64,000 nt of DNA from Spirochaetia bacterium (GCA_963668545.1 OY764868.1:3234015-3298014); one strand, 5' to 3'. Numbered from the stretch's first letter, positions 46,478-64,000 are shown. Notes: a model not told the origin generated them from the sequence alone. Numbers and translations are program-made.

Positions 46478-47278
46478 TTATAAAGGGCTCTTAATCCTTT
46501 TAGATATCGGATCTGCAAGATTAATATAGATCATTGTAGTTTTAACAGATTTATGTCCAAGCAGCTCTTTTACAGTCTTAATATCAATACCTGATTCAAC
46601 AAGATGAGTTGCAAAGCAGTGCCTCAGGGTATGACATGTGGGGCTTTTCTGTATTTGGCTTTTGTTAAGAGCATTTTCGAATATCTTCTGAACAGTCCTC
46701 ACAGAATATTTTTTTCCGCTGATTGTCCTGAACAGGAATTCAGCCGCACTTCGCCCGCTTATAAGATTCCGGAGGTCCTCTTTATATTTTTCGGACAGCA
46801 GAGAAAACCGGTCCTTATTACCCTTTGAATCTCTTATCTTTACTGAAAGATTATTTAAATTTACATCCCTTATCTTTATCCTGCAAACCTCGCTAACACG
46901 CAGGCCGCTGCCGTAAAGAAGGGAGATCATAAGCTGATGTTTTTTATTGCTTATATTTTTCAGAATTTCAAGGATCTCTTCCCTTGTCAGAATATCAGGA
47001 AGCCTTTTTCTTGACCTTACCCTGTCAAGTTTATAAGGGCACGGCTTATCAAGAACAACAGAATAAAACAGCTTTACGGCAGACCACGCAAGCCGTCTCT
47101 GTTCGGGAGATTTTTCTTCAGTTTCAAGAAAGACCGCAATTCTTTTTTCAGGCACAAAATCTGTCCGCCTAGAGAATTCAATAAAATGCTTTAAATGACC
47201 TGAATAAATCCGTATTGTATTTCGGGAATAATTACGGTTTTTCATCTCTCTGACAAAATCATCAAGATAATTTTTCAT
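46478..47278 (-). CDS. tyrosine site-specific recombinase, putative integron-associated integrase (compact, Xer-like; apparently lacks IntI-specific insertion)
   Basis: Catalytic R127 (GLRVSE), K152/155 (SKGNKDR), H216-x-x-R219 (HTLRHCFATHL), H242 and Y251 (LGHKSVKTTMIY). Divergent from the plus-strand cassette array. Confidence 0.8.
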   Translation of the reverse strand: MKNYLDDFVREMKNRNYSRNTIRIYSGHLKHFIEFSRRTDFVPEKRIAVFLETEEKSPEQRRLAWSAVKLFYSVVLDKPCPYKLDRVRSRKRLPDILTREEILEILKNISNKKHQLMISLLYGSGLRVSEVCRIKIRDVNLNNLSVKIRDSKGNKDRFSLLSEKYKEDLRNLISGRSAAEFLFRTISGKKYSVRTVQKIFENALNKSQIQKSPTCHTLRHCFATHLVESGIDIKTVKELLGHKSVKTTMIYINLADPISKRIKSPL

Positions 47279-47604
47279 AAATCACGTCCTCCTTTATGTA
47301 TTAACAGGAGAAATGCAATTCTGCTTGAATTATCAGCAAACAAACCGTAAAATTATCATGCAATACAGATAAATGTAGTTCATCTGAAATAACTCGGGGC
47401 TAAGAAAATTTAATATAACTGGCTCCAGCGGTAGATCAGCAAAGAAGCGGTGTAGCTTATGGGATATTGTCATGGCACATGATTAACGACAAGAACCGCC
47501 CCGAGTTACATCAGATAACAAGAAATATATGCGGCATTTCATTTGGGCTTCGCCACAATGGCTTCGTCCCTCAGCCATCGTCATATATTTCTAAAACGTT
47601 ATGT
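47279..47604 (+). other. attI-like region with degenerate attC-like structure ending in GTTAT core (47598-47602)
   Basis: 11-bp inverted repeat TAACTCGGGGC (47388-47398) / GCCCCGAGTTA (47497-47507), then cagATAAC-AAGAAATATATG...CATATATTTCT-aaaacGTTAT homologous to downstream attC sites. Confidence 0.5.
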
Positions 47605-47682
47605 TCAATGCCCATTTTTTTTACATTTTTTGAACTCGCCCGTCCATGGGCTCGTAAGAGGAAATAATTAAGGTAAATATAA

Positions 47683-49404
47683 GTGTCGAAGAAACTAACA
47701 ATTGAGGAAATGCAAAATATTGCTAAAAGTCGTGGTGGCAAATGCATCTCAAAGAAATATATAAATAAAAATAGTAAATTGGAATGGGAATGCTCTGAAG
47801 GCCATAGATGGTTAGCAACTCCAGATTCAATTAAAAATACTGGTCGATGGTGCCCTATATGCGGAGGTTCTGCACCATTAACGTTAAAAGAAATACAATT
47901 AATTGCTAAAGAAAGAGGTGGGAAATGTCTTTCCGAAGAGTATATCAATGTCAAAACAACAATGAGATGGGAATGTTCAGAAGGTCACCACTGGGAGAAC
48001 ACTGCCGGAAAAATTAGACAAGGTCAATGGTGCCCTTATTGTGCCGGAAAGGCAAAATTGGATATTCAGGACTTGAAAAGATTAGCAGAAGAAAAAGGCG
48101 GTAAATGTCTTTCTGAAAAATATAAGAACAATAGTTCAAAATTGTTATGGCAATGTTCAGAAGGGCATGAATGGAAATCCAGTGCAAATAATATTAAAAA
48201 TGGTGCGTGGTGTCCCTTTTGTGCTAATCGTGCAAGAATTACAATTGAGTCTCTATCAGATATTGCCAATAAAAGAGGTGGAGAACTTTTATCAACAGAT
48301 ATCGGAAATAACAAAACAAAATTGCAGTGGCGGTGCAAATACGGTCACACATGGAAAGCCACACCAAATGCCATTAGTAGAGGTACATGGTGCCCAAAGT
48401 GCTCAGAGGGTTTAGGAGAAAGAGTTTGTAGGTATTTCTTTGAAACACTTTTTGCAAAGAAGTTTAATAAAGCTCATCCTGATTGGTTGGTTTCAGAAAG
48501 AGGAGCGTTGCTTGAATTGGATGGATACAATGAAAGATTAAAAATTGCGTTTGAACACCAAGGCGTCCAGCATTACAAATTTTTAAAAGTTTTCCATTCA
48601 TCTAATGAGGACTTTATTGATCAGCAGAACAGGGATGAGCTTAAAAAAGAAGTTTGTAAAAAAAGAGGCATACACTTAATTGAGGTTCCAGAGATTCCAG
48701 CATTATTACCGTTGGATAAAGTCAAAGACTTTATTATTGAAAAATTGCAGGATTTACAGATTCCATTCAAATATGAAAAAGCAATATCAATTGATTTGAA
48801 TATAGCATATTCATCAAGTAAAACCGAAGAATTCTATATTCGTCTCCAGAAAGCTGTTGAAGAAAAAGGAGGAATATTAATTTCCAACCGATATCTCGGA
48901 ACTTCGACTAAACTTAAGTTCAAATGTAAAGAAGGGCATATCTGGAAGACATCTCCTAATATGATTTTTAATGGACAATGGTGTCCAGAATGTGCTGGAA
49001 ATATTAAATATACCTTAGAACAAGTTCAGGATTTTGCAAAAGAGCGAGGAGGGAAATGTCTATCGACAGAATACAATAGAGCAAATGAAAAGCTTAAATG
49101 GAAATGTAATTTTGGACATACTTGGGAAGCATCACTAAGTAATGTTATAACTGCAAATCATTGGTGTCCTGTATGTCGCAAGATTGAAGAAGAGACAAGA
49201 TTTTATAATGAAGCGGTTGATTTAGCAAAGAAAAATCAAGGAACTTGCATTTCAAGAAAATATATAAATGCAAAAACAAAGCTCAAGTGGCGTTGTTCCA
49301 GTGGACATGAATGGGAAGCGCTACTCGGTAATATTCGACAAGGAACATGGTGTCCTTATTGTGCCAAGAAGCGGAGAAATAGTAATACAGATAATTTATC
49401 GTAA
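47683..49404 (+). CDS. cassette 1: protein with seven ~45-aa treble-clef zinc-ribbon repeats (DUF4379-like, W-C-x-GH-W...W-CP-x-C) flanking a central DUF559/PD-(D/E)xK-like nuclease-fold domain
   Basis: Repeats KCxSxxY...KLxWxCxxGHxWxxxxxxIxxGxWCPxC occur 4 times N-terminally and 3 times C-terminally. The central LELDGYNERLKIAFEHQGVQHY resembles the restriction-endonuclease-like DUF559 core. Confidence 0.6.
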   Translation: MSKKLTIEEMQNIAKSRGGKCISKKYINKNSKLEWECSEGHRWLATPDSIKNTGRWCPICGGSAPLTLKEIQLIAKERGGKCLSEEYINVKTTMRWECSEGHHWENTAGKIRQGQWCPYCAGKAKLDIQDLKRLAEEKGGKCLSEKYKNNSSKLLWQCSEGHEWKSSANNIKNGAWCPFCANRARITIESLSDIANKRGGELLSTDIGNNKTKLQWRCKYGHTWKATPNAISRGTWCPKCSEGLGERVCRYFFETLFAKKFNKAHPDWLVSERGALLELDGYNERLKIAFEHQGVQHYKFLKVFHSSNEDFIDQQNRDELKKEVCKKRGIHLIEVPEIPALLPLDKVKDFIIEKLQDLQIPFKYEKAISIDLNIAYSSSKTEEFYIRLQKAVEEKGGILISNRYLGTSTKLKFKCKEGHIWKTSPNMIFNGQWCPECAGNIKYTLEQVQDFAKERGGKCLSTEYNRANEKLKWKCNFGHTWEASLSNVITANHWCPVCRKIEEETRFYNEAVDLAKKNQGTCISRKYINAKTKLKWRCSSGHEWEALLGNIRQGTWCPYCAKKRRNSNTDNLS

Positions 49405-49410
49405 TACTGT

Positions 49411-49438
49411 CCAAAAGTACCGTCCGTGGTACTTTTGG
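49411..49438 (+). terminator. hairpin immediately after cassette-1 ORF
   Basis: CCAAAAGTACCgtccgtGGTACTTTTGG; occupies the same position as the CCAGACC hairpins preceding other attC sites. Confidence 0.4.
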
Positions 49439-49471
49439 AATCTTTACTACACCAAAAAAAATGGGCACTAA

Positions 49472-49616
49472 ACATAACAGCGAATATGCGGTTACGCTTC
49501 GCTTCACCCAAATTGCTTCTTTGATAAAAGCTGAAAAAAGTATGTTATACTTTTCCCAGCTTTTATCAAGCCCACAAGGGGCCGAAGCAACTTCGCATAT
49601 TCGCGAGACGTTATCG
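49472..49616 (+). repeat. attC site of cassette 1
   Basis: ATAAC-agcgaatatgcg ... cgcatattcgcgag-acGTTATCG inverted arms; GTT at 49610-49612. Confidence 0.6.
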
Positions 49617-50044
49617 TAAATGGCTCTGACATACAACTTCATTCATTATTTACTAAAATCTGTCTCAGCCTTTTTTCAGGGTTTTATATCTCTTTCACAG
49701 GTTTCAACTGCACTGGTTCATTCTTGTTTTTAGAACTTCTTGCTTTGCTTTATCATGACTCTTATTGGTTTAAGTTTTTATATTTTTGCAGTTTCACTTT
49801 TCTTCAGTTCTGATATTGATAAGCACTAAGGGCTGAGTCAGATTTTGTCCTGACCTACACTCTTTCGTTTCCTTCACGCCACATCCGAAAACAGCGTATA
49901 TCCGGCTCCGGCTTGTGGGATGTATTTTCAGGGTAAAACGTCCTTCGCCAAAAATGCCAGGACTTTTTGTGTTGCAGAGTAAATGCAGCAGGTGTATCAT
50001 TAATCAAAATAAAGCGGCTGGCATCTTCGGATATACGCGTGCCG
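49611..50044 (+). repeat. ORF-less repeated cassette, copy a (434 nt, includes its own ~165-nt attC 49885-50050)
   Basis: Runs from the TT after the previous GTT core to its own GTT core. Divergent copy (about 90% identical to copies b-f). Confidence 0.6.
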
Positions 50045-50478
50045 TTTTCGGAAATGGCTCTGACATACAACTTCATTCATTATTCACGAAAATCTGTCTC
50101 AGCCTTTTTTCATGGTTTTGTGTCTCTTTCACAGGTTTCAACTGCATTTTTTCAGTTCTGCTTTTACAACTTCTTGCTTTGATTTTTCATGACTCTTATT
50201 GGTTTAAGTTTCTATATTTTGCAGTTTTCACACTTTTTAAGTTTTGTTATCTATAAGCACAAAGGGCTGAGTCAGATTTTGTCCTGACCTACACTCGTTC
50301 GTTTCCTTCACGCCACATCCGAAAACAGCGTATATCCGGCTCCGGCTTGCGGGGTGTATTTCCAGGGTAAAGCGTCCTTCGCCAAAAATGCCAGGACTTT
50401 TTGTGTTGCAGAGTAAATGCAGCAGGTGTATCATTATTCAAAATAGAGCGGCTGGCATCTTCGGATATACGCGTGCCG
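50045..50478 (+). repeat. ORF-less repeated cassette, copy b
   Basis: Same unit; attC arms gaAAAC-agcgtatatccg ... cggatatacgcgtgcc-GTTTTcg. Confidence 0.6.
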
Positions 50479-50913
50479 TTTTCGGAAATGGCGCTGACAT
50501 ACAACTTCATTCATTATTCACGAAAATCTGTCTCAGCCTTTTTTCCTTGGTTTTGTGTCTCTTTCATCGGTTTCAACTGCACTTTTTCAGTTCTGCTTTA
50601 AGAACTTAATTCTTTGATTTTTCATGACTCTTATTGGTATAAGTTTTTATATTTTTGCAGTTTCACTTCTCTTCAGTTCCGATATTGATAAGCACAAAGG
50701 GCTGAGTCAGATTTTGTCCTGACCTACTCTCTTTCGTTTTCTTCACGCCACTTCCGAAAACAGCGTATATCCGGCTCCGGCTTGCGGGGTGTATTTCCAA
50801 GGTAAAGCGTCCTTCGCCAAAAATGCCAGGACTTTTTGTGTTGCAGAGTAAATGCAGCAGGTGTATCATTAATCAAAATAAAGCGGCTGACATCTTCGGA
50901 TATACGCGTGCCG
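50479..50913 (+). repeat. ORF-less repeated cassette, copy c (identical to copy f)
   Basis: The 435-nt unit is identical base-for-base to 59612-60046. Identity starts and stops at the GTT cores. Confidence 0.65.
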
Positions 50914-50937
50914 TTATTCGTAATTTTCAGGCAAGAT

Positions 50938-50967
50938 ATTGCCCGGACCTCCCGGACGACACGGGCA
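50938..50967 (+). promoter_or_regulatory. conserved GC-rich hairpin module at 5' end of cassette (variant GCCCGGacctcccggacgacaCGGGC)
   Basis: About 25 nt downstream of the GTT core. Related modules at 53804, 56800, 58078, 60077 and 63524. Confidence 0.45.
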
Positions 50968-51004
50968 AAAGATTTAAAAAATATTTATTTTGCAGGAGAA
51001 AAAA

Positions 51005-51787
51005 ATGTTTTATGAGGAAATAAATAAAAGAACATGGAATGCAGCTAAACAATATTTAATAAATTTGTGTAAAGAAAGTTCGCATTGGATTTTTAGAGGT
51101 CAGTCAAATCCGGATTGGGAAGTAACTTCAACAATAGAAAGAGAATTAAGATATAGTGACCAAGAAAATTCTTCGATAGAAAATAAATTAATATCCGAAT
51201 TCAAAAGGGCTGCTCCCAATTATTTAAATCAAAACCAGATTCCTGCAAAACTGGTTGAATGGATGGCCTTAATGCAACATTACGGAGCTCCAACTCGTTT
51301 AGTTGATTTTACTAAATCTCCATATATTGCAACATTCTTTGCTTTTGAAAATATCTTTGAAAATTACAAATATGTTACAGTATGGGCAGTAGAAAGCTAC
51401 AAATTGAAGCAATTAGCTAATGAAGTGTATATAGATGATGATGTTCCCCAATTAATGAAAAATAATAAATATTTGGTATATCCTATTGAACCTTTTATAA
51501 TGAATGAAAGATTCGAAAAACAACAAGGGACATTTTTAATTACAGGAAACATTAATCAATCACTAGCTACAAATTTTATCGAAATGGGCTTATTAGAAGA
51601 TATGGGAATTATTAAAAAAATTAATATTCCAAAAATAGAAAAAAATAGTGTTATTCAAGACTTAAATTTAATGAATATCAATCCTGTAACTCTTTTTCCT
51701 GGTTTAGATGGATATTCGCGATACATAAAAAAAATGACAGATGCAATTTATAAAAAAGATTTTACTTATTTTAAAAGAGGAAATTAA
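51005..51787 (+). CDS. cassette: FRG-domain protein
   Basis: HWIFRGQSNPDWEV motif (FRG). ATG at 51005 with a GGAG RBS (the ORF track's TTG at 50990 is inside the conserved hairpin module). Confidence 0.65.
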   Translation: MFYEEINKRTWNAAKQYLINLCKESSHWIFRGQSNPDWEVTSTIERELRYSDQENSSIENKLISEFKRAAPNYLNQNQIPAKLVEWMALMQHYGAPTRLVDFTKSPYIATFFAFENIFENYKYVTVWAVESYKLKQLANEVYIDDDVPQLMKNNKYLVYPIEPFIMNERFEKQQGTFLITGNINQSLATNFIEMGLLEDMGIIKKINIPKIEKNSVIQDLNLMNINPVTLFPGLDGYSRYIKKMTDAIYKKDFTYFKRGN

Positions 51788-51859
51788 AATATTGCGACAA
51801 GTTATAAACAATTCAGAACTGGCTCCGCCGGACGGTCTGAAGAAGAGCCTGAAAACTAC

Positions 51860-52028
51860 GCATAACAGAGAATACCCGGTTCAGGCATAAGTAGTAAAAG
51901 TATGGGGCTTAACTGCCGTTCACCCAAAATGTCGGGACTTTTGTTGTTGCGTGTGAAATCTGGTGGGTATATGATTAATGAAATATCTGGAGCATCCGAC
52001 ATCTTCGGGTATTCTCAGAACGTTATAA
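51860..52028 (+). repeat. attC site (long family 1) of FRG cassette
   Basis: cATAAC-agagaatacccg ... cgggtattctcag-aacGTTATAAG. Preceded by an imperfect CAGAAC...GGTCTG hairpin at 51817-51839. Confidence 0.6.
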
Positions 52029-52125
52029 GAAATTGCGCTAATTAAATCTAATATAGATATTATATTTACAATAATTACATATAAATATATTTGATATATA
52101 ATGGTTTAATAATAAAGGATGATAT

Positions 52126-52680
52126 ATGAAAAAAATTATAATAAGTTTGATATTTATAACAGTAGCTTTTTGTGCTTTTCCTCAAGAAGCGAATATGAGA
52201 TTTCAATCTCAAATAGCTAGATTATTTGCACTCTATATTCCAAGTGCCGATTACAGTGTTGATTGGAACGCTAATAATACTGGAGAAGTTCTCAATATAA
52301 AATTTCCTGAAGTGAAATCATCAACTTATAATAGAAATATAATACCTAATTTAACAATTCAAATTGAAAAGAAATACAAATCCTTTGATACAAAGAGTGA
52401 ATTGATAAGTTTGTTGAATGACATGGAAAAAAGTCATTTCAAAGCAATATCAACAGGTCAAAAAGTCGATGGAGTCAATTTACAATACTCTATTGAAACT
52501 TTTGTAGCCTGTCAAAGCTATAAAGATCTTAAGATAAACAATATGAACCATACAATTCTTATCATGCTTGGACAATATGAAGACATGGCTGCCAGAGTAA
52601 TATTTGATGCTACTGATGATATATTTGAAAACACTCTTGAAACTGCAAAAACCATAATAAATAGTATTATTCTTGATTAA
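52126..52680 (+). CDS. cassette: secreted hypothetical protein (signal peptide)
   Basis: MKKIIISLIFITVAFCAF signal peptide. AT-rich cassette with its own AT-rich 5' region. Confidence 0.55.
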   Translation: MKKIIISLIFITVAFCAFPQEANMRFQSQIARLFALYIPSADYSVDWNANNTGEVLNIKFPEVKSSTYNRNIIPNLTIQIEKKYKSFDTKSELISLLNDMEKSHFKAISTGQKVDGVNLQYSIETFVACQSYKDLKINNMNHTILIMLGQYEDMAARVIFDATDDIFENTLETAKTIINSIILD

Positions 52681-52745
52681 AGAATATATCAAAGTAAAAC
52701 TATGAGAAGTTTAAATAATGTTGTTAGTGAAGGTAGGCGCAACTA

Positions 52746-52910
52746 CTTATAACAAGAAATATATGATAAAAACTGAATTAGAATAAATATAAGCAAACAG
52801 TTTTTATCAAAATTGCCAGAATATTTTCTGTTTCAGGATAATTTCAGAAGGTGTATGATTATTTCATATGAAGCACTCTGGCAACTTCATATATTTCTGA
52901 AACGTTTTCG
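52746..52910 (+). repeat. attC site (family 2)
   Basis: cTTATAAC-aagaaatatatg ... tgccag...ctggca ... catatatttct-gaaacGTTTTCG. Confidence 0.6.
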
Positions 52911-53339
52911 GAAATGGCTCTGACTCACAACTTCATTCATTATTCACAAAAATCTGTCTCAGCCTTTTTTCCATGGTTTTGTGTCTCATTTCTCGGTTTC
53001 AACTGCACTTTTTCAGTTCTGCTTTTACAACTTCTTGCTTAGATTTTTCATGACTCTTATTGGTATAAGTTTTTATATTTTTGCAGTTTCACTTCTCACC
53101 AGTTTTGATATTGATAAGCACTAAGGGCTGAGTCAGATTTTGTCCTGACTTACACTCTTTCGTTTTCTTCACGCCACATCCGAAAACAGCGTATATCCGG
53201 CTCCGGCTTGTGGGATGTATTTTCAGGGTAAAACGTCCTTCGCCAAAAATGCCAGGACTTTTTGTGTTGCAGAGTAAATGCAGCAGGTGTATCATTAATC
53301 AAAATAAAGCGGCTGGCATCTTCGGATATACGCGTGCCG
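52905..53339 (+). repeat. ORF-less repeated cassette, copy d
   Basis: Same 434/435-nt unit as copies a-c. Confidence 0.6.
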
Positions 53340-53773
53340 TTTTCGGAAATGGCTCTGACATACAACTTCATTCATTATTCACGAAAATCTGTCTCAGCCT
53401 TTTTTCAAGGTTTTGTGTCTAATCCTTGGGTTTCAACTGCACTGGTTCAGTTCTGCTCTTATAACATTTTGCTTTGATTTTTCATGACGCTTATGGATAT
53501 AAGTTTTTATATTTTTGCAGTTTCACTTTTCTTCAGTTCTGATATCGATAAGCACAAAGGGCTGAGTCAGATTTTGTCCTGACCTACACTCTTTCGTTTC
53601 CTTCACGCCACATCCGAAAACAGCGTATATCCGGCTCCGGCTTGTGGGATGTATTTTCAGGGTAAAACGTCCTTCGCCAAAAATGCCAGGACTTTTTGTG
53701 TTGCAGAGTAAATACAGCAGGTGTATCATTAATCAAAATAAAGCGGCTGGCATCTTCGGATATACGCGTGCCG
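53340..53773 (+). repeat. ORF-less repeated cassette, copy e
   Basis: Same unit. Confidence 0.6.
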
Positions 53774-54072
53774 TTATAAGCAATGTTTCCGCTAAGAGGA
53801 GAACGCCCATACCTCCGCCGACGGGCGAAGATTTAAAATTTATGATAAATTCAAAATAAAATGAAAGTATCTATGTATTGAATGATACGAAAGAATATGT
53901 TTATCAGAAAGAACTAAAATGAAATCATAGATGGTAAAACTTGACTTTTTCGTGATTAATAGTGATAGTTTTGTGATATTTCTGATTTTATAATATTAAT
54001 CTATTGAACCAATAATATTGAATATATTCCTTGACAGAGATTTTTACTGTATCTATCATTATCTTAACAACT

Positions 54073-55020
54073 ATGGAATATAGAGACTATTATAAAATCC
54101 TTGGCCTATCCAAGGATGCAACAAAAGATGATATAAAAAAGGCATACCGCAAACTTGCGCGTAAGTATCATCCAGATATAAACCTCCATGATAAAAAAGC
54201 TACTACTATGTTTGCAGATATCAATGAAGCAAACGAAGTGTTAAGCAGCGACGAAAAACGCAGGAAATATGATGCTCTGGGTTCAGACTGGCAGCAGTAT
54301 CAAAGTACCGGCTCCCAGAGGGCCTCACAACCACAGGGATTCGATTGGACACAATACGGTAAAGGAGCAGGCACTCAATCGTATACAGTTACAGAGGACG
54401 ACTTGAACAATATGTTTGGAGAAGGCGGTTTTTCGGATTTTTTCCAAAGCTTTTTTTCGTCCAGCCAGGAAAGACCGGGCAGTTCGGCTAAAAATTACGC
54501 AAGAAAAGGGCAGGATTATCAGGCTGAATTATATCTCGAAATTGAAGAAGCCTATAAAAAAACTGTTAAGACACTCTCTATAAACAGACAAAATATCAAG
54601 ATCACCCTTGAACCTGGCGTCAGGGATAGCCAGGTCATTAGACTGAAGGGTAAGGGCGGCCTAGGAATTAATGGCGGAGCTAATGGTGATTTATTTATTA
54701 CCCTGAAAATAAAACCCCATCCTATCTATAAAAGGGAGGGAGATGATCTGATTATGGAACTTGGTGTGAGTGTTTACAAAGCCATGCTTGGCGGCGAACA
54801 AATTATTAAATTATTATCAGATTCAATAAAAGTGAAAATAGCTCCCGAGACCCAAAGAGGGACAACACTACGCATCAAAGGAAAAGGATTTCCTTTGTAC
54901 AGGATAAAAGATGAATTTGGAGATTTATATATAAAGCTGGTTCTGGATGTACCCAAAAAGCTGACTGTAAAAGAGAAGGAATTAATAATGGAACTGGCCA
55001 AAATTAGGGGAGAAATATAA
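54073..55020 (+). CDS. cbpA: cassette: curved-DNA-binding DnaJ-like co-chaperone CbpA (J domain + DnaJ C-terminal domains, no Zn finger)
   Basis: MEYRDYYKILGL...HPD J-domain at the N-terminus, Gly/Phe-rich linker and two DnaJ_C beta domains. ATG at 54073 (the ORF track's TTG at 54031 would add 14 aa). Confidence 0.8.
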   Translation: MEYRDYYKILGLSKDATKDDIKKAYRKLARKYHPDINLHDKKATTMFADINEANEVLSSDEKRRKYDALGSDWQQYQSTGSQRASQPQGFDWTQYGKGAGTQSYTVTEDDLNNMFGEGGFSDFFQSFFSSSQERPGSSAKNYARKGQDYQAELYLEIEEAYKKTVKTLSINRQNIKITLEPGVRDSQVIRLKGKGGLGINGGANGDLFITLKIKPHPIYKREGDDLIMELGVSVYKAMLGGEQIIKLLSDSIKVKIAPETQRGTTLRIKGKGFPLYRIKDEFGDLYIKLVLDVPKKLTVKEKELIMELAKIRGEI

Positions 55021-55022
55021 AC

Positions 55023-55833: not shown

Positions 55834-55913
55834 ATAATGCTCGGCTTGCCTTTTTGACTCGCCATCCATAGCTCGATTTGTAAGTAATATTAAAAGTAGG
55901 GAGATATAGTTCA

Positions 55914-56558
55914 ATGAACCTTTATAAGCACAAAAAAATCTTTTTATCAATTTTTCTATCTGCAATATTTTGTTTTAATTCATTATCGTTAGTAGCTGAT
56001 GATTATTCACCTGAAATCCAAAAATATATGGATGATTTGTTAAAGTGGAGAAAGGAGGTTGCATTACCACCACTACCGAAATTAATAACTTTACCATCAG
56101 GAATTACTATTCCAGAATTCACATTGAAGACAGAGAAATACCCTGAAGTTTTTTGGGATGGAAATATGATGATTGGCGCAACTCCTTTTATTGTGCGAGT
56201 TTTAACTGAAAATGAGACAGAAATACTCATAAAAATTGCTTCAGATGCACTTACACAACACTATAACTCAAGATCAAAGAAATCCGATATGGGTTTTGAA
56301 AAAGCACATATAAATGATTTCTATGCTTTATCAATAGCTGAAGTATATAGACATTCTGGGTTATTCGGACCAACCATTGATGGAAGCACAACATTTGTAT
56401 TAATTATGAAAAAAGATGTAAATCCATCAAACCTTTTTCCAAATGAAAAGCTATATAAAAACTACATACCTTGGGCGCCTAGCGGCATACATTTCTTAGT
56501 AATTGAGCGATTTTCTGATGGTTCTTTTAAAGTCAATAACGAAGGAGCCGCCGGATAA
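55914..56558 (+). CDS. cassette: secreted hypothetical protein
   Basis: Signal peptide MNLYKHKKIFLSIFLSAIFCFNSLSLVA. Confidence 0.55.
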   Translation: MNLYKHKKIFLSIFLSAIFCFNSLSLVADDYSPEIQKYMDDLLKWRKEVALPPLPKLITLPSGITIPEFTLKTEKYPEVFWDGNMMIGATPFIVRVLTENETEILIKIASDALTQHYNSRSKKSDMGFEKAHINDFYALSIAEVYRHSGLFGPTIDGSTTFVLIMKKDVNPSNLFPNEKLYKNYIPWAPSGIHFLVIERFSDGSFKVNNEGAAG

Positions 56559-56611
56559 AAAAGTACATCCATATACTTTGTATATTTAGATAGAGGATAG
56601 CCGAGCACAAC

Positions 56612-56775
56612 GGCTAACAAGAAATATATTATTCAGGCTGGAGAAGTAAAAAAGAAAGTATACAGCCTTCATCCAAATTGCCAGAATGTTTTCTGTTGCA
56701 GAGTAATTTCAGCAGGTGTATGATTATTTCATATGAAGAAGTCTGGCAACTTCATATATTTCTGAAACGTTATCA
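56612..56775 (+). repeat. attC site (family 2)
   Basis: gCTAAC-aagaaatatatt ... catatatttct-gaaacGTTATCAG. Confidence 0.6.
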
Positions 56776-56799
56776 GAAATGTTCCCGCAAGAGGAAGAT

Positions 56800-56824
56800 C
56801 GCCCGGACCTCCGGCCGACGGGCG
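56800..56824 (+). promoter_or_regulatory. conserved GC hairpin module CGCCCGGacctccggccgaCGGGCG at cassette 5' end
   Basis: Identical or near-identical copies at 58078, 60077 and 63524; variants at 50938 and 53804. Confidence 0.45.
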
Positions 56825-56861
56825 AAGATAATTCAACAATAATGAAAAAGGAGATAATAAT

Positions 56862-57821
56862 TTGAAAAATGTATATTTAATAATACTATTATTGACAGTT
56901 AATACATTAGTTTCAGCAAATGACACATGGATTTATAACGCATATAGTGGTTCCCCAATAAAAATTAATGAGGATCATAATAAAATTGAATTAATCAATG
57001 AAACAATCACAGTTAAATTAGAAAAAGACTACTACTATATTGATGTTTTATTCAACTTTTACAATCATGGAAATGATGTAAATACAGTTATAGGTTTTCC
57101 TAAATTTTATTGGACCGGATTTCCATATGAAAAAGCAGATACTGAATTTATAGATTTTGAAACATTTGTTAATGGTAAAAAAGTTGATTCTAAAATTCAA
57201 AAAATACTAAAATATGATAAACTATCTGAATTTTTAACAAAAGAGGTATACATTCCTTCTAAGTCAAAAACAACAACTGAAATAAGATATAAGAGTAAAT
57301 ATGCAACCTATGGAGGAATGGGTCATAAATCTGTACCATATTTATATGGTACAGGTAAAACTTGGGCGAAAGAATCTTGGGATATAGATGTAAAAATAAT
57401 AAATAATAGCAACAAATGGATTAAGCGATTCCAATGTGATCAAAAAATCTATAAATTTTCAAATAAAAACAATGTTATTGATTTAATCTTTAAAGATGTG
57501 AATCCAAACGAATTTACAGAGTATTTTGAAATTGTATTAAAGAATAATTTTGATGAAATGTTTGATTTTTACTGGGATATTTATGGGGAAAAAAATATTA
57601 AACAAGATGAACTAACTTATTTAAATGATAATCAATTAAGACTTTATAGAAATGCATTCTTTGCAAAAGATGGTTATATTTTCAAATCAAAAGATTTGCA
57701 AAATTATTTTAAAAAATTTGATTGGTATAAAGAAAACAATGACTTTAATCCAGATGTTTTTTCAAATATAGAAAAAAATAATATTAAATTAATTTCAATA
57801 GAAGAAAAAAAACGTAAATAG
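56862..57821 (+). CDS. cassette: secreted YARHG-domain protein
   Basis: Signal peptide; C-terminal LRLYRNAFFAKDGYIFKSKDLQNYFKKFDWY matches the YARHG-domain pattern. Confidence 0.6.
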   Translation: MKNVYLIILLLTVNTLVSANDTWIYNAYSGSPIKINEDHNKIELINETITVKLEKDYYYIDVLFNFYNHGNDVNTVIGFPKFYWTGFPYEKADTEFIDFETFVNGKKVDSKIQKILKYDKLSEFLTKEVYIPSKSKTTTEIRYKSKYATYGGMGHKSVPYLYGTGKTWAKESWDIDVKIINNSNKWIKRFQCDQKIYKFSNKNNVIDLIFKDVNPNEFTEYFEIVLKNNFDEMFDFYWDIYGEKNIKQDELTYLNDNQLRLYRNAFFAKDGYIFKSKDLQNYFKKFDWYKENNDFNPDVFSNIEKNNIKLISIEEKKRK

Positions 57822-57837
57822 AATCTTTAAAAGAAAT

Positions 57838-58054
57838 CCAGACCTGGCTCCGCCGTACGGTCTGGAGAAGAGCGGGAACACATCTGATAACAGAGAATAC
57901 CACGGTTCAGGCATAAGTTGTAGAAGCTTTGGAATAAATGCCTTTCACCCAAAATGTCGGGTCTTTTTATTGTTGCGTGTGAAATCGGCCAGATATATGA
58001 TTTATTAAATATCTGGAGTACCCGACATCTTCGGGTATTCTCAGAACGTTATCG
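57838..58054 (+). repeat. CCAGACC hairpin + long attC (family 1)
   Basis: CCAGACCtggctccgccgtacGGTCTGG ... tGATAAC-agagaatacc ... cgggtattctcag-aacGTTATCG. Confidence 0.6.
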
Positions 58055-58165
58055 TAAATGCCCCCCAAGAGAAGATCGCCCGGACCTCCGGCCGACGGGC
58101 GATAAGATTATAATGATTATGAATTGAATTAGACTACAAAAAAGTAAAGAGGAGGATCTACAGAT

Positions 58166-59341
58166 ATGTCAGAGCAGTTCTCAAGAAGAAAAAAGGAAGA
58201 AAACCCCGTTATAGCGATTTGCTATGATTTTGATAAAACCCTTTCTCCTGACGATATGCAAGCTCAAGGATTTATACAGTCAGTTGGATATGATATAAAA
58301 ACTTTTTGGGAGAGATCAAATAAGCTTGCTACTGATAATGAAATGGATCAAAATCTAGCATATATGTATACAATGCTTCAAACATCAGTAGGGATGCAGT
58401 TAGTAACAAAAAAAGTGTTAAGGGAATATGGTGAAAAAGTTACTCTTTTCCCTGGAGTAGAAGATTGGTTCTCAAGAATAAGAGATTATGGCATTAAACG
58501 CGATGTTATAATTGAACATTATATAATTTCATCTGGTTTAAAAGAAATGATTGAAGGAACATCAGTTGCAAAAGAATTTGAAAAAATATATGCAAGTTCT
58601 TTTTATTTTGATGAATATGATATTGCAAAGTGGCCAGCTCAAGCAATAAATTATACAAATAAGACTCAGTTTTTATTCAGAATAGAAAAAGGTGTTTTGG
58701 ATATTAATGACCAAAGTGTAAATGATAGCTTTTCATCAGATAAAATTAGAGTGCCATTCAGAAATATAATTTATATTGGTGATAGTGACACTGATATCCC
58801 GTGTATGAAATTAGTTAATTCTTATGGGGGGCATTCAATAGGCGTATATAATGTTGAAACAAAGGATAAAACTAAAGTTTATAAAATGATGAGGGAAAAT
58901 AGAATTAAATATTTCTCTCCAGCTGATTATTCTGAAGATTCAGAATTGGACAAATTAATAAAAGCAATAATTGTAAGAACTGTTTCCAATGAGCAACTTG
59001 AAGTTTTTCATTCAAAAAATATTTTAGAACAAATTGATAATGACAAATCATATGATAAAAAGACTCAAGAACAAAATAAAGAAAGATTGAATGGTATTTT
59101 AGCACTTGAAAGCAGTCTTAGTTTTACGAATACTCATACCGTTATTGATAAGATTAAACATATTCAAGATTGGACAGATAAAGAAATAGAAATGTTATTA
59201 GAAATAGGAAATAAAAATAGTCAAGTATGGTATATATTAGGTGATTTAGACGTAAAGAATTTTTATAAAAGACTTATAGAATCACCAAATTGTAATAAAG
59301 AGACGGATAATGCAAAAGAAATTATAGAACAGATAGATTAA
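58166..59341 (+). CDS. cassette: HAD-like hydrolase with C-terminal extension
   Basis: CYDFDKTLSP (DxDxT motif I) and IYIGDSDTD (motif IV); 391 aa. Confidence 0.55.
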   Translation: MSEQFSRRKKEENPVIAICYDFDKTLSPDDMQAQGFIQSVGYDIKTFWERSNKLATDNEMDQNLAYMYTMLQTSVGMQLVTKKVLREYGEKVTLFPGVEDWFSRIRDYGIKRDVIIEHYIISSGLKEMIEGTSVAKEFEKIYASSFYFDEYDIAKWPAQAINYTNKTQFLFRIEKGVLDINDQSVNDSFSSDKIRVPFRNIIYIGDSDTDIPCMKLVNSYGGHSIGVYNVETKDKTKVYKMMRENRIKYFSPADYSEDSELDKLIKAIIVRTVSNEQLEVFHSKNILEQIDNDKSYDKKTQEQNKERLNGILALESSLSFTNTHTVIDKIKHIQDWTDKEIEMLLEIGNKNSQVWYILGDLDVKNFYKRLIESPNCNKETDNAKEIIEQID

Positions 59342-59399
59342 ACTAAGATTATCTAAAAATAATGTTATCTTGAAATATAATCGAGAGATAGATAAAAAG

Positions 59400-59617
59400 C
59401 CAGACCTTGACTCCGTCGTACGGCTTGGACAAGAGAGGGGGGCACATCCGATAACAGAGAATACCCGGTTCAGGCATAAGCAGTAAAAGTTTGGGGCTTA
59501 ACTGCCTTTCACCCAAAATGTCGGGCCTTTTTATGTTACAGGTGGAAACTGGTGGTTGTATGATTATTTTAATACGTGGAAGATCCGACATCTTCGGGTA
59601 TTCTCAGAACGTTTTCG
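59400..59617 (+). repeat. hairpin + long attC (family 1) ending GTTTTCG
   Basis: CCAGACCttgactccgtcgtacGGCTTGG ... cGATAAC-agagaatacccg ... cgggtattctcag-aacGTTTTCGG. Confidence 0.6.
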
Positions 59618-60046
59618 GAAATGGCGCTGACATACAACTTCATTCATTATTCACGAAAATCTGTCTCAGCCTTTTTTCCTTGGTTTTGTGTCTCTTTCAT
59701 CGGTTTCAACTGCACTTTTTCAGTTCTGCTTTAAGAACTTAATTCTTTGATTTTTCATGACTCTTATTGGTATAAGTTTTTATATTTTTGCAGTTTCACT
59801 TCTCTTCAGTTCCGATATTGATAAGCACAAAGGGCTGAGTCAGATTTTGTCCTGACCTACTCTCTTTCGTTTTCTTCACGCCACTTCCGAAAACAGCGTA
59901 TATCCGGCTCCGGCTTGCGGGGTGTATTTCCAAGGTAAAGCGTCCTTCGCCAAAAATGCCAGGACTTTTTGTGTTGCAGAGTAAATGCAGCAGGTGTATC
60001 ATTAATCAAAATAAAGCGGCTGACATCTTCGGATATACGCGTGCCG
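59612..60046 (+). repeat. ORF-less repeated cassette, copy f (identical to copy c)
   Basis: 435/435 identity to 50479-50913; the flanks differ on both sides. Confidence 0.65.
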
Positions 60047-60143
60047 TTATCAGCAATGTTCCCGCAAGAGAAAGATCGCCCGGACCTCCGGCCGACGGGC
60101 GAGGATTGTGAAAATAATTAGTTAAATTTCAAGGAAATTATTT

Positions 60144-60917
60144 ATGCGAGAAAATATAGAATATTGGATAGATCTTTTAGAAAGTGCCTATATTTTAACT
60201 CATGATATTGACAAAATAATACGGCCTATAAGAAATAACGATATAATAAAAAAAGTTTTGAATGCATATCTTTTTAAAGTGAATAGGACACTTGCAGGGA
60301 TCATTTTATTATATAAAAATAACTTTAATGAAGAAGGCCAAATATTAGTACGTACAATGTTTGAGCTACTATTGGATTTTAGTTTTTTTACAAATATTTT
60401 AAAAACAGAACCTGAAATAGCTGGTCGTCGTATTATAGATAGTCTCATAATTGAAAAAGCAAAGCAACTAAGGGCTTCTAATTATGACGGCGTCCCAGAA
60501 AACATAAAATTAGATATTGAAAAATGGGAGTCTGAAGTCAAGTCAAGATATTCAATTGATGATATCCGGAAATTACGTAGATATGGATTTTCAATGGTAT
60601 CAGTAGAAGAAAAAGCAAAATTAACTGGTCATGAAAGCATATATAATATTATGTATAGAAACTTTTCTCGTAATTCACATAACACTGATTTTATGGAAAG
60701 TTTTCTTCAAATACAAGCATATGAGGCAGATGGCTATGAAGAGCTTCAAGTTTCAAGAGATTCTATTGCGATGGAAACTACATTTATAACAATATACAAT
60801 ACCATTCAATCTTTAAATACGGTTTTTAAACTTTCTTTCAATGATCGAATCGAACAACTTAAAAGAAAGTTTGATATGCTAAAAAAGAATAATGATGAAA
60901 CAATTTCAGGAAATTAG
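60144..60917 (+). CDS. cassette gene 1 of 2: hypothetical protein (257 aa, no recognisable domain)
   Basis: Long ORF with a GGAA RBS region; first gene of the only long two-gene cassette. Confidence 0.5.
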   Translation: MRENIEYWIDLLESAYILTHDIDKIIRPIRNNDIIKKVLNAYLFKVNRTLAGIILLYKNNFNEEGQILVRTMFELLLDFSFFTNILKTEPEIAGRRIIDSLIIEKAKQLRASNYDGVPENIKLDIEKWESEVKSRYSIDDIRKLRRYGFSMVSVEEKAKLTGHESIYNIMYRNFSRNSHNTDFMESFLQIQAYEADGYEELQVSRDSIAMETTFITIYNTIQSLNTVFKLSFNDRIEQLKRKFDMLKKNNDETISGN

Positions 60918-60958
60918 ATCATTCAATATTTTAGGAATTATCAAGGAGTATATAACTC

Positions 60959-61819
60959 ATGCTTGTAATTAAAAATTATATTTTTTCCTATTTTAATAGT
61001 ATTTCATATGAAATATGGATTGGAGCTATAATTGGAGCAATTATTTCTGCTTTGTTTATGTTATTTTTTTCATTTTTAAAAGGAATAATATTTAAAATTA
61101 AAGAACAACTACCAGTTCGAAAAGTTGTTGGTGATTTTGCAAATGACGAACAAATATGTAGTATCTTTTTAAAAAACCTTTACTCACATAATTATGAATA
61201 TCTATCAAATGAACCCAATTTTTTCCCACCTTATACGAAAAATACTCAAAGAGAATGGCAGAATATTCCATTTGTAATTGCTAATTCAGATTTCCAAGCT
61301 GCTACGGATTTTACAAACATCCTTGGACAAATAGGAAAAAGAAAAAATATTATTTTTCGATCAATTGAAAATGAGTGGGATTTGTGGTCAGAAAACATAT
61401 TATCTATTGGAGGCAATTATAAAACTGAAAAAATATTTGAATTGTCAAATAATAAATACGTGGAAATCACAGAAAATAATTCTTTTAAATTTAATGACCA
61501 CAGTGAATTATTTTTTTCTAAAGATAATAATGATTTCGGACTGATATATAAAGCTACAAATCCAGCAACACAGAAAAAATGTTTTGTTATAATGGGTATT
61601 GGTGTAGAAGGAACAAAAGCTGCAAGCTATTATTTTAGAACAAACTTATCTCAAATTGGTAAAATGTTTGGTAAAAATGACTTTGCATTGTTAGTTAAGA
61701 TAAAAATTGGACAAGGTAGAGAAAATTCTAAATTAGCCTGGTATCTTCCCAATATTTCTTTAAGTTCAAAACTATGTCATCCATTGATTTGGAAAAGAAT
61801 ATTTTCAATAATTAAATAA
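60959..61819 (+). CDS. cassette gene 2 of 2: membrane-anchored hypothetical protein (N-terminal TM helix + ~240-aa cytoplasmic domain)
   Basis: IWIGAIIGAIISALFMLFFSFL TM. GGAG RBS 8 nt upstream. No attC between it and gene 1. Confidence 0.5.
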   Translation: MLVIKNYIFSYFNSISYEIWIGAIIGAIISALFMLFFSFLKGIIFKIKEQLPVRKVVGDFANDEQICSIFLKNLYSHNYEYLSNEPNFFPPYTKNTQREWQNIPFVIANSDFQAATDFTNILGQIGKRKNIIFRSIENEWDLWSENILSIGGNYKTEKIFELSNNKYVEITENNSFKFNDHSELFFSKDNNDFGLIYKATNPATQKKCFVIMGIGVEGTKAASYYFRTNLSQIGKMFGKNDFALLVKIKIGQGRENSKLAWYLPNISLSSKLCHPLIWKRIFSIIK

Positions 61820-61943
61820 GCAATTTAATCAATCACGGGATAGACAGTATAAAATTATTATTAAAAATAAAAAATTAAGTAGCTTTCAAAAAAATATTAT
61901 TAACATATTTTCCGTACAATTTTTTTATGTAGACAGAAAAGAT

Positions 61944-62155
61944 CCAGACCTTGACTCCGCCGTGCGGTCTGGTCGAAGAGTGGGAACACTTCAGATAACA
62001 AGAAATATATGATTCAAGCTGGAAAAGAGTAAATGACAGAAAACAGCTTTCATCCAAATTGCCAGAACGTTTTCTATTTCTGTATAGTTGCAGCAGGTGT
62101 AAGATTATTTCATATAGAGCGGTCTGGCAACTACATATATTTCTGAAACGTTATT
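61944..62155 (+). repeat. CCAGACC hairpin + attC (family 2)
   Basis: CCAGACCttgactccgccgtgcGGTCTGG ... caGATAAC-aagaaatatatg ... ttgccag/ctggcaa ... catatatttct-gaaacGTTATTTG. Confidence 0.6.
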
Positions 62156-62171
62156 TGCAAGGCTAAAATTG

Positions 62172-63508
62172 TCCAACCAGGACATGGGTAACGATTTAAC
62201 TTCAGGACATAGGTAACACTTTTACAGGAATCTTTCCGAAACCTTTAATAAAAAAGGGAGGAAAGAAATGCCCTGGAAGGAGACTTATGTTATGGATCAA
62301 AGAAAAGAATTCGTACTGGAAGCAATGGATCCTCTCTGCAATTTTACTAAGCTTTGTAGTAAATACGGCATTTCAACTAAGACAGGATATAAGTGGAAAA
62401 GCCGTTTTATACAAGAAGGTTTTGCAGGCCTTTTTGATCAGTCGAAAAGACCTGATAATTCACCAACTCAAATAGATGAAGAGACGATACTTGAGATAAT
62501 AAAATTAAAAATAAAGAAAAAACACTGGGGGCCAAAGAAAATAAGAGAGATTTACAGGCAAAAACATCCTGATGAAATAATACCATGTCTTACCAGTGTC
62601 GAAAGAATATTAAGAAAAGCAGGTCTTATTAAAAAACGAAAGCGGAATCGGACAGGCAGTGGAATTAGACTTCAAACAAATGCTGTAGCTGAAAAGCCTA
62701 ATGATGTATGGACAGTAGATTTTAAAGGTTGGTGGTATACCCAAGATAAAGAAAAAGTGAATCCGTTAACTGTAAGAGATGATTTTTCAAAATACATTTT
62801 ATGCATAAAAGCTCTTGATAAAGGGGATACAGCTTCTGTAAAGGCTGAATTTGAGGTTCTTTTTAAAAGATTTGGACTTCCTAAAGTCATTCGATCAGAT
62901 AATGGACCTCCCTTTGCATCAAGAATGAGTCTTCTAGGCTTAACAAAGCTTTCAGTCTGGTGGATGGCTTTAGGTATTCAATTAGATAGAATTGAACCAG
63001 GTAAACCTCAGCAAAATGGAAGCCATGAACGAATGCACCTTGATATGAAAAATGAACTTGAAAGCTGTATCGAAGGAAATATTCTGCTGCACCAGAAAGA
63101 GTTTGACAGGTGGCGTAAAGAGTTCAATAACGAGAGGCCTCATGAAGCTTTAGGAATGAAAACTCCTGCTATGGTTTATACTGCATCAGAAAATAAATAT
63201 GACGGAATCATTGAGGACTTGGAATATCCCGGAACATTCAGGACACGGTTGGTAAATAACAGGGGTTATATAAGCATTAAAAGACGAATGTTCTTTATTG
63301 GTAATCCTTTCATGGGTTATTATGTAGGTATAAGACCGCAAAAGGACTGACAGCAGAATGTCTGGTTCGGTGATTATTTTTTAGGATCTTTGGATATGGA
63401 TACAGGATTATTACAGCCTGAGTCTATTGTGAAATTTAATAAGGGCAATTTAAGAAAACCGTTACCCATGTCTTGAAGGGGGACTGTTACCTATGTCCTG
63501 AAGTTGGA
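62172..63508 (+). mobile_element. IS481-family-like insertion sequence inserted about 20 nt downstream of an attC core, inside the conserved 5' module of the next cassette
   Basis: Ends TGTCCAACCAGGACATGGGTAAC (left) and GTTACCTATGTCCTGAAGTTGGAC (right, reverse-complementary). Each end carries two tandem copies of a ~17-nt CAGGACATRGGTAAC motif. Confidence 0.65.
62268..63350 (+). CDS. IS481-family transposase (HTH + rve DDE integrase core)
   Basis: N-terminal HTH; DVWTVDFKGW ... D ... E rve catalytic core; 360 aa single ORF. Confidence 0.75.
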   Translation: MPWKETYVMDQRKEFVLEAMDPLCNFTKLCSKYGISTKTGYKWKSRFIQEGFAGLFDQSKRPDNSPTQIDEETILEIIKLKIKKKHWGPKKIREIYRQKHPDEIIPCLTSVERILRKAGLIKKRKRNRTGSGIRLQTNAVAEKPNDVWTVDFKGWWYTQDKEKVNPLTVRDDFSKYILCIKALDKGDTASVKAEFEVLFKRFGLPKVIRSDNGPPFASRMSLLGLTKLSVWWMALGIQLDRIEPGKPQQNGSHERMHLDMKNELESCIEGNILLHQKEFDRWRKEFNNERPHEALGMKTPAMVYTASENKYDGIIEDLEYPGTFRTRLVNNRGYISIKRRMFFIGNPFMGYYVGIRPQKD

Positions 63509-63523
63509 CCCGCCAAGAGGAAG

Positions 63524-63548
63524 ACGCCCGGACCTCCGGCCTACGGGC
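63524..63548 (+). promoter_or_regulatory. conserved GC hairpin module (CGCCCGGacctccggcctaCGGGCG)
   Basis: Same module as at 56800, 58078 and 60077, here immediately after the IS right end. Confidence 0.45.
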
Positions 63549-63609
63549 GAAGAAAAAATGTAATTTAAAACAGAATTCGCTTTTTAGAGATGAATAATAA
63601 GGAAGATAA

Positions 63610-64000
63610 ATGATAATAAAAATAGCTTATTTCTCCGGAACTGGATGTACACAATTTGTCGCTGAATCATTCAAGAATGAAATTGAAGCTAGAAATCACT
63701 CTGCTCAAATGATTAGAATTGGTAAGGACATTTCAAATAGTAAGAAGGATTACGATTTACTAATTATATGTTATGCAGTCCATGCATGTAATGCGCCAAA
63801 GCCAGTTCTTGATTGGGTTAATAATAACGAAGAATCAGATAATGTTCCAACAGCCATTATTTCTGTTTCGGGAGGAGGAGAAGTAACCCCAAATTTAGCA
63901 TGTCGTTTATTATTGAAGAAGAAATTAACTAAGAAGAATTATTCAGTATTTTATGAAAAGATGATAGTAATGCCGTCAAATTGGATAGTTCCAACAAAAC
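63610..64000 (+). CDS. cassette: flavodoxin-like protein (3'-partial, runs off window)
   Basis: MIIKIAYFSGTGCTQ flavodoxin signature (S/T-x-T-G-x-T) at the N-terminus. Confidence 0.6.
   Translation, partial: MIIKIAYFSGTGCTQFVAESFKNEIEARNHSAQMIRIGKDISNSKKDYDLLIICYAVHACNAPKPVLDWVNNNEESDNVPTAIISVSGGGEVTPNLACRLLLKKKLTKKNYSVFYEKMIVMPSNWIVPTK

Follow-up and report, generated by a model that had tools for sequence, protein, structure and literature searches.

A window of 64,000 nucleotides (nt) from the genome of a Spirochaetia bacterium (GCA_963668545.1 OY764868.1:3234015-3298014; positions are counted from its first letter) contains, from 46478 to its end, the gene of a 266-residue tyrosine recombinase that points away from an array of co-oriented gene cassettes. 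In this array, 15 co-oriented imperfect-palindrome sites delimit 16 cassette units, C0 to C15, that extend from 47380 to beyond 64000 (Table 1). The locus is probably an integron-like platform of a separate lineage, run by a relative of the integron integrase IntI that lacks the additional domain (I2). Applying the criteria of classical integrons (Messier & Roy 2001, Cury 2016, Nivina 2016), we place it outside the integron family as defined in the literature, since a test for the additional domain showed that it is missing, yet it works like an integron. The initial annotation had called the region a sedentary chromosomal integron: the divergent recombinase, the attI site, the co-oriented AAC...GTT sites and the synteny on the housekeeping side bear this out, whereas the missing I2 domain, a score below cut-off on the integron integrase model TIGR02249 and the non-canonical attC sites do not.

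The recombinase open reading frame (ORF) lies on the minus strand where the initial annotation had placed it, with a strong match to Pfam PF00589 (Table 1). The R-K-H-R-H-Y catalytic set (R127, K152, H216, R219, H242, Y251) is invariant among 61 homologues, and the C-terminal SPL motif of IntI is found in the protein and is conserved. TIGR02249 (integron integrase, NCBIfam) is the top curated model, with 205.1 bits for a cut-off of 265 and a match that falls into two stretches; PRK15417 likewise matches in two stretches (130.4 bits, cut-off 435), and the models for archaeal XerA (NF040815), XerC and XerD give 200, 157 and 151 bits for cut-offs of 220, 335 and 330, respectively. The best match of solved structure by sequence is VchIntIA (PDB 2a3v): recombinase residues 9-173 and 195-266 align to VchIntIA 9-181 and 246-317, and at the position of the additional domain 22 residues stand against 65 in VchIntIA (about 43 residues skipped). 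A structure predicted with AlphaFold (AF2; pLDDT 86) also has 2a3v as its best fold match (E 3e-17), with XerA next, and in this predicted model no helix occupies the I2 gap between H163-173 and H193-207. The 28 classical IntIs from the loci that we fetched carry two additional blocks of 42 residues in total, which the window protein, its family and XerA are without. Judged from its sequence, the recombinase is a catalytically intact relative of the integron integrases; the defining feature of the IntI family is missing from it, and by that feature it is not an integron integrase. A truncated pseudogene was also considered and rejected, because close homologues keep both the length of 265-266 amino acids (aa) and the catalytic residues. 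One relative (P0234, 324 aa) has an unrelated 39-aa insertion exactly where classical IntIs carry the additional domain, which suggests that this loop is a hotspot for insertions.

The recombination sites were counted with a fixed-register pattern (AAC, 1 nt, a 10-nt arm, the reverse-complement arm with at most one mismatch, 5 nt, GTT), which occurs 15 times on the plus strand and never on the minus strand of 47279-64000 and once in the other 47 kb of the window; in 100 first-order Markov simulations of the array region, scanned on both strands, it turned up 0.21 times on average and 3 times at most. Their cores read GTTAT, GTTTT or GTTAG, in keeping with the palindromic elements ending in GTT(A/T)T that had been noticed between genes. 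The DNA between the genes of the array is made up of related repeats. Across 38 sites from 10 genomes the layout is (T/A)AAC, an invariant A, an arm of 11-12 nt, a tip, the complementary arm, five bases (mostly RRRAC) and GTT(A/T). AAC, GTT and the register are invariant, and the sequence of the L arm varies, with compensatory double changes at 8 of the 12 pairs. Most sites measure 137-163 nt and a minority 74-84 nt, those of the window ranging from 84 to 162 nt. Upon folding, the anticipated R''/L''/L'/R' pairing is present and consists of an R stem, a 5x1 asymmetric loop, a perfect L stem of 11-12 bp and a tip of 40-130 nt that varies and is often branched, the R stem being 5-6 bp long in the array and about 18 bp in the excised-circle form. 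Canonical attC sites are described with an unpaired spacer in the centre, a tip that varies and, close to L'', two or three extrahelical bases (PMC5027507). The extrahelical-base pattern, likewise anticipated, was not seen: none of the 38 sites has a bulged (extrahelical) base in the unbroken L stem, and the spacer is 1 nt on one side and 5 nt on the other. In our classical control, a Xanthomonas integron (L075), about 9 nt separate triplet and L core on both sides of a site of about 60 nt. Pairing of the extended R stem has one recurrent exception, where CAC of R'' stands opposite ATG of the cassette's own 5' end (e.g. 47505-47520 against 47598-47612; also in L088 and L089). On the top strand this puts C against A, a mismatch, whereas the bottom strand can form a G.T wobble; the position is conserved to relatives of 45% identity. 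Folding with energy parameters for DNA gives the bottom strand a higher stability than the top strand in 14 of the 15 sites in circle context.

An enzyme of this build might move cassettes in the manner of Xer-dependent dif modules, through Xer-like recombination of double-stranded DNA at the AAC/GTT cores, in which case the palindromes would be incidental or regulatory. Its XerA-like architecture, the lack of an I2 helix and the 200 bits on the XerA model point this way, as does the thought that I2 is the innovation behind single-strand recombination; with archaeal XerA and bacterial Xer it shares length, domain architecture and the lack of an insertion near patch III. Unlike these enzymes, however, it falls below the XerA cut-off, has the IntI-type SPL motif and adjoins 15 hairpin sites with cassettes, not a single two-arm dif. 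The sites themselves argue against the double-strand account: the L arms keep pairing and not sequence, as seen from the double changes above, and only a folded strand would explain why the 1-versus-5 bulge is fixed and why the G.T wobble favours one strand. Moreover, no 28-bp two-arm site is present, and all sites are co-oriented and 84-162 nt long here, whereas the 28-bp sites of dif modules (pdif) alternate in orientation. We consider double-strand exchange unlikely.

The window and three sister loci (L081, L082, L083) can be aligned from the start codon of the recombinase gene to ...TGTAGTT (47379-47381) and diverge from the next base; this position is the attI crossover. The same conserved attI block is contained in two further sister loci (L084, L085). 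Within it lies a candidate promoter directed into the array (Table 1), both hexamers of which fall in blocks that are invariant across four sister loci, the spacer between them being variable. In integrons, crossover between G and TT leaves the first bases of a cassette complementary to its own R'' and not to the adjoining site. In the window, the 15-nt stretch that precedes each AAC agrees at 12-14 of 15 positions with the reverse complement of what follows GTT in the previous site, as opposed to 4-9 of 15 for the sequence after GTT of the same site where neighbours differ. The 5' end of C0, GTTCATCTGAAATAACTCGGGGC, is complementary to its own R'' region at 19 of 21 positions with one indel. 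This own-end complementarity is repeated in L081-L085 and in L001, L002, L088 and L089 (up to 17/18), and the classical Xanthomonas integron shows it as a positive control, for example with GTTAGACCGC against GCGGTCTAAC.

Comparison of sister strains, whose recombinases are 75-92% identical, revealed the turnover of cassettes that the initial annotation had proposed to look for. L081-L086 keep the flank (cupin, phosphoribosyltransferase, radical SAM, apolipoprotein N-acyltransferase and GGDEF genes) and carry unrelated genes on the opposite side of the recombinase, where the cassettes differ; the gene order is not conserved elsewhere. C10 has a counterpart in L084, a cassette with 97.7% identity over exactly its 942 nt that has another position and different neighbours, and C0 is matched in L083 at 95% over its full length, the similarity stopping at the next GTT. 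Most other cassettes have only the last ~155 nt, that is the site itself, in common with other arrays. Palindromes repeated at intergenic positions could in principle be non-mobile elements within a fixed gene cluster, such as terminators or repeats resembling repetitive extragenic palindromes (REP) or miniature inverted-repeat transposable elements (MITE). We attach next to no probability to this, as gene content differs between strains exactly from GTT onward, whole GTT-bounded units recur in other arrays and the own-end complementarity test favours cassettes. Own-end complementarity, sister comparison and recurrence of whole units independently identify the units as true cassettes.

We then consider how far the recombinase and the arrays go together. 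A search of 1.84 billion representatives yielded a large set of insertion-less relatives that are closer to the recombinase than any classical IntI is. Among the 120 nearest homologues, nearly every one is 265-266 aa long and from Spirochaetes, that of Spirochaeta isovalerica being 63% identical. Members of the 265-266-aa family (42-92% identity; from metagenome-assembled genomes, MAGs, of Spirochaetes and from unassigned metagenome contigs) all adjoin such arrays. At 40-55% identity, a divergent recombinase with an array recurs in L001, L002, L003, L088, L089, L090 and the Firmicutes MAG L004, in unrelated genomic neighbourhoods, and in L002, L089 and L090 the first cassette begins about 100 nt from the start codon, as it does in the window. 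The linkage of recombinase and array is constant. On the tentative reading given below, I2-less systems of this lineage would occur in isolates as well as MAGs of Spirochaetes, in one or more Firmicutes MAGs and in metagenome contigs without assignment; upstream repeats were not found at L014 and L063, which represent relatives from Nitrospirae. Trees made by neighbour-joining group the classical IntIs into one clade with 100% bootstrap support, and the recombinase family lies outside of it.

Two observations concern the distant and the fragmented members of this set. In the Firmicutes locus (L004 1-5100; Firmicutes bacterium HGW-Firmicutes-8, PGZN01000027.1), a short recombinase of 40% identity faces cassettes of about 1 kb each, with sites composed of CTAAC, 4 nt, GGCTAAACGG ... 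CGTTTAGCC, 7 nt and GTTAG that pass the own-end complementarity check; the spacer is 4 versus 7 nt instead of 1 versus 5. Complete integrons have been reported to be absent from Firmicutes (PMC4889954). Contigs that encode a relative of the recombinase frequently break off on the upstream side of its gene, within 150-400 nt, as in S. isovalerica (L087, JACHGJ010000004.1), L005, L006 and L043, which fits repeat arrays breaking short-read assemblies, and such systems may be under-seen in draft genomes.

The main rival to a platform run by the short recombinase is that a classical IntI encoded elsewhere serves a canonical array in trans, the short recombinase being an Xer-like bystander or having another role. 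Clusters of attC sites lacking an integron integrase are known as CALIN, and by the IntegronFinder rule, which requires a match to intI_Cterm (Cury et al. 2016), the locus would be a CALIN at best. The additional domain has been reported as necessary for IntI activity, for 29 of 50 non-IntI recombinases beside attC sites an IntI was encoded at another place in the replicon (Cury et al.), and our inspection covered the window and loci of 20 kb. Unlike a CALIN, however, the array here is tied, both physically and in evolution, to an attI and to a recombinase that is intact, conserved and related to IntI. Linkage and divergent orientation are kept over 40-92% identity and in at least seven genomic contexts, the conserved attI block abuts the recombinase gene, and the sites are without the extrahelical bases that classical IntI reads. 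No classical intI was found in any inspected stretch, nor any other IntI-like gene in the window or in 13 loci of the family. Service in trans fits the conserved linkage and the non-canonical sites poorly, and we judge it improbable.

If the short recombinase is the catalyst, it would join the double-stranded attI (between G47379 and TT) with the folded hairpin at the 3' end of a cassette (between G and TT of R'), and recombination between attI and hairpins would insert, excise and reshuffle circular cassettes. The four unpaired bases beside the cleavage site and the G.T wobble confined to the bottom strand plausibly replace the extrahelical bases that are read by the I2 helix of IntI, the clustered bulge and the strand-specific wobble acting as orientation marks. 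Expression of the cassettes would probably start at the promoter-like sequence that is conserved within attI. The gain of I2 is regarded as the step by which an Xer-like enzyme became able to recombine folded, single-stranded attC sites (PMC7790495). We tentatively propose, as a reading that is quite possible, that the integrase of this lineage never acquired the I2 helix and recombines folded cassette hairpins by means of the clustered 4-nt bulge instead of extrahelical bases. Single-strand hairpin recombination would then either predate I2 or have evolved twice. A literature search for an I2-less integron found no description of one among the papers available.

Several points weigh against this assignment. 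First, published work regards the additional domain as a requirement, both for activity (Messier and Roy 2001, as cited in PMC8352920) and for attC recognition (PMC7790495). Second, the role of catalyst is assigned to the recombinase by linkage only, and the view of the relatives spanned 20 kb each, beyond which a classical intI could act in trans. Third, the trees were built by neighbour-joining with two XerA outgroups only and leave the deep nodes unresolved; loss of the domain from within the classical IntI clade, which we also considered, finds no support in them. Fourth, the sites used for covariation were picked by pairing, such that the 94% paired L stem is true by construction and the information lies in how varied the pair types are. 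Finally, a spliced covariance model (R1) made from the stems of the 38 sites detected only two short sites, those of C0 (57.9 bits) and C9 (48.7 bits); it misses the long sites because their long, variable tips exceed what the model tolerates, and for this reason the fixed-register pattern was used for counting.

Table 1. Features of the recombinase-cassette locus. Sites are from the pattern scan and are given as positions of AAC/GTT; own-end, matches in the own-end complementarity test.
Feature	Position	Strand	Site (AAC/GTT)	attC extent	Own-end	Content
Tyrosine recombinase, IntI-like, without I2	46478-47278	minus				266 aa; Pfam PF00589 (E 4e-40) and SAM_4 (N-terminal SAM-like domain)
attI-equivalent	47279-47381	plus				crossover between G47379 and TT
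Candidate cassette promoter	47325-47353	plus, into array				TTGAAT, 17 nt, TAAAAT; consensus scan
Cassette C0	47380-47598	plus	47517/47598	47513-47604 (attC-like)		219 nt, no ORF
Cassette C1	47599-49610	plus	49476/49610	49472-49616	13/15	573-aa protein 47683-49404, DUF4379 zinc-ribbon and CapR repeats
Cassette C2	49611-50044	plus	49890/50044			ORF-less 434/435-nt copy, tandem with C3, C4
Cassette C3	50045-50478	plus	50324/50478			ORF-less 434/435-nt copy
Cassette C4	50479-50913	plus	50759/50913			ORF-less 434/435-nt copy
Cassette C5	50914-52022	plus	51864/52022	51860-52028	13/15	FRG-domain protein 50990-51787 (Pfam FRG)
Cassette C6	52023-52904	plus	52751/52904	52747-52910	12/15	184-aa protein 52126-52680, no family match
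Cassettes C7-C8	52905-53773	plus	53185/53339, 53619/53773			two tandem ORF-less 434/435-nt copies
Cassette C9	53774-55827	plus	55747/55827	55743-55833 (short)	14/15	DnaJ-like cbpA 54031-55020; MerR_2 cbpM-like 55023-55379
Cassette C10	55828-56769	plus	56616/56769	56612-56775		214-aa protein 55914-56558
Cassette C11	56770-58048	plus	57889/58048	57885-58054	13/15	YARHG-domain protein 56862-57821
Cassette C12	58049-59611	plus	59453/59611	59449-59617	12/15	HAD-like protein 58166-59341
Cassette C13	59612-60046	plus	59892/60046			sixth ORF-less 434/435-nt copy
Cassette C14	60047-62150	plus	61997/62150	61993-62156	12/15	DUF5677 protein 60144-60917; 286-aa protein 60959-61819
Cassette C15	62151-64000, off window	plus				leader split by insertion sequence; flavodoxin-like gene from 63610 (Flavodoxin_5, weak)
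IS481-family insertion sequence	62170-63510	plus				transposase 62268-63350; NCBIfam IS481 (E 7e-61); Pfam rve, LZ_Tnp_IS481

From 47683 on, coding is confined to the plus strand, as had been proposed, for all ORFs with a family match or of convincing length, and the array continues past 64000, C15 running off the window. Of the earlier claim of at least 15 cassettes with functionally varied cargo, the number (16 units) and the heterogeneity held, while seven units turned out to be ORF-less and one supposed cargo gene, the ORF at 62268-63350, proved to be the transposase of an IS481-family insertion sequence (IS) that interrupts the leader of the last cassette. The FRG protein of C5 matches the PADLOC candidate defence family PDC-S15 (180 bits) and the HAD-like protein of C12 matches PDC-S34 (628 bits). 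Sister arrays (L081-L085, L090) contain ThsB-TIR, type I and type II restriction-modification, OLD, GmrSD and RelA/SpoT-like genes, a two-gene restriction-modification system forming a single cassette in L090. The arrays of the window and its sisters look enriched in anti-phage functions.

Six copies of the ORF-less 434/435-nt cassette are present in the array (3 + 2 + 1), always upstream of protein-coding cassettes. Their ends are conserved and their centre is variable and indel-rich, and they contain an internal 20-bp inverted repeat, AAAATCTGTCTCAGCC / GGCTGAGTCAGATTTT. C4 and C13 have different neighbours and show 0 differences in 435 nt (50481-50915 versus 59614-60048). The cassette also occurs at full length in L081 (6059-6491) and L085 (9086-9520) and in part in L086 (375-720). 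That it is a gene was considered and rejected, as its ORFs overlap attC or are broken by frameshifting indels between copies. The consensus folds into a long nested hairpin with no covariation, and a weak promoter-like match within the cassette is not above chance.

The insertion point of the IS in C15 lies 20 nt past the G of GTT 62150. Copies of 95-97% identity are found in L085 (6218-7562 and 4324-5668) and L086 (8541-9884). Of the four insertions, which are independent of each other, three are at attC-like sites and the fourth is at attI; in every case the element lies 19-20 nt after the crossover G and is co-oriented with the cassettes. This suggests that it targets the 5' boundaries of cassettes. 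IS1111-attC elements and group IIC-attC introns are mobile elements known to target attC sites, and the IS481-family element resembles them in its fixed offset from GTT. It belongs to a different family of IS (DDE, IS481-like), however, and its target lies in the 5' leader of cassettes or the R' extension.

Unrelated cassettes also share hairpins outside their sites. In several genomes, unrelated cassettes carry in their 5' leader a GC-rich and near-identical hairpin, CGCCCGGACCTCCGGCCGACGGGCG, about 30 nt past the crossover (56800-56824, 58077-58101, 60077-60101 and 63525-63549, with variants at 50939-50966 and 53800-53823; also in L081, L082, L083 and L084), and its loop contains an anti-Shine-Dalgarno-like CCTCC. 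A second leader hairpin, with a fixed RTCCAT loop and a covarying GC-rich stem (GCCC/GGGC, CCCGCC/GGCGGG, CCCGGC/GCCGGG, ATCTGCC/GGCAGAT, TAATGCC/GGCATTA), is found at 47638-47651, in related form at ~55860, and in L081-L085, L089, L090 and L002. It mostly sits 26-39 nt past GTT, ahead of the ribosome-binding site, with 14 occurrences on the cassette strand versus 3 weak ones on the opposite strand. Just upstream of R'', several cassettes have a 3' hairpin, CCAGACC-N15-GGTCTGG followed by GAAGAG, whose sequence resembles the 5' leader hairpin (55693-55721, 57837-57865, 59400-59428 and 61944-61972; related forms at 51812-51840 and 47420-47450). The leader hairpins and the 3' hairpin of unrelated cassettes may be part of a module for cassette building or expression. 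No Rfam family was detected in the window at gathering thresholds or in the array at E<=1; the array repeats and leader hairpins are not known RNAs, and attC itself has no family in Rfam.

Taken as a whole, the locus resembles sedentary chromosomal integrons such as the superintegron of Vibrio cholerae (VchIntIA) and the integrons of Xanthomonas (L075) in its divergent recombinase with an adjoining attI, in the crossover between G and TT and in its co-oriented, mostly promoterless cassettes, which end in imperfect palindromes with AAC...GTT and have 5' ends complementary to their own R''. Families of sites common to unrelated cassettes, cassette turnover between strains and defence-type cargo are further likenesses. 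Unlike classical integrons, it has a recombinase of 266 aa (versus ~310-320 aa) that lacks the additional domain and lies outside the IntI clade, and sites with a perfect L stem, a 1-versus-5-nt spacer (~9 versus 9 in Xanthomonas) and an R stem of ~18 bp in circle form. The only integrons described from spirochaetes are the chromosomal integrons of Treponema (PMC3607928). The window has in common with these the spirochaete host and a chromosomal cassette array, and differs in that their reported IntI is of the classical type, whereas the recombinase here is without the additional domain. In Treponema integrons intI is co-oriented with the cassettes, while the recombinase gene of the window is divergent.

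These results describe an I2-less relative of IntI that is tied, in several genomic contexts, to shuffled cassette arrays with an attI of their own and a differently marked hairpin. A survey of genomes came to the conclusion that recombinases beside attC sites that are without the additional domain are not IntI (Cury et al. 2016). If the platform is as we read it, detectors that require intI_Cterm would systematically miss such elements, and if the recombinase is the catalyst, surveys of integrons would undercount them, in Firmicutes among others. The candidate anti-phage genes in the arrays agree with integrons being stores of defence functions. With the recombinase as catalyst, the hairpins would constitute a new class of structure-specific recombination sites, and the origin of single-strand recombination in integrons would become testable in a natural I2-less system. 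Spirochaeta isovalerica, with its 63%-identical enzyme, is a genome-sequenced named species that is taken to be culturable.

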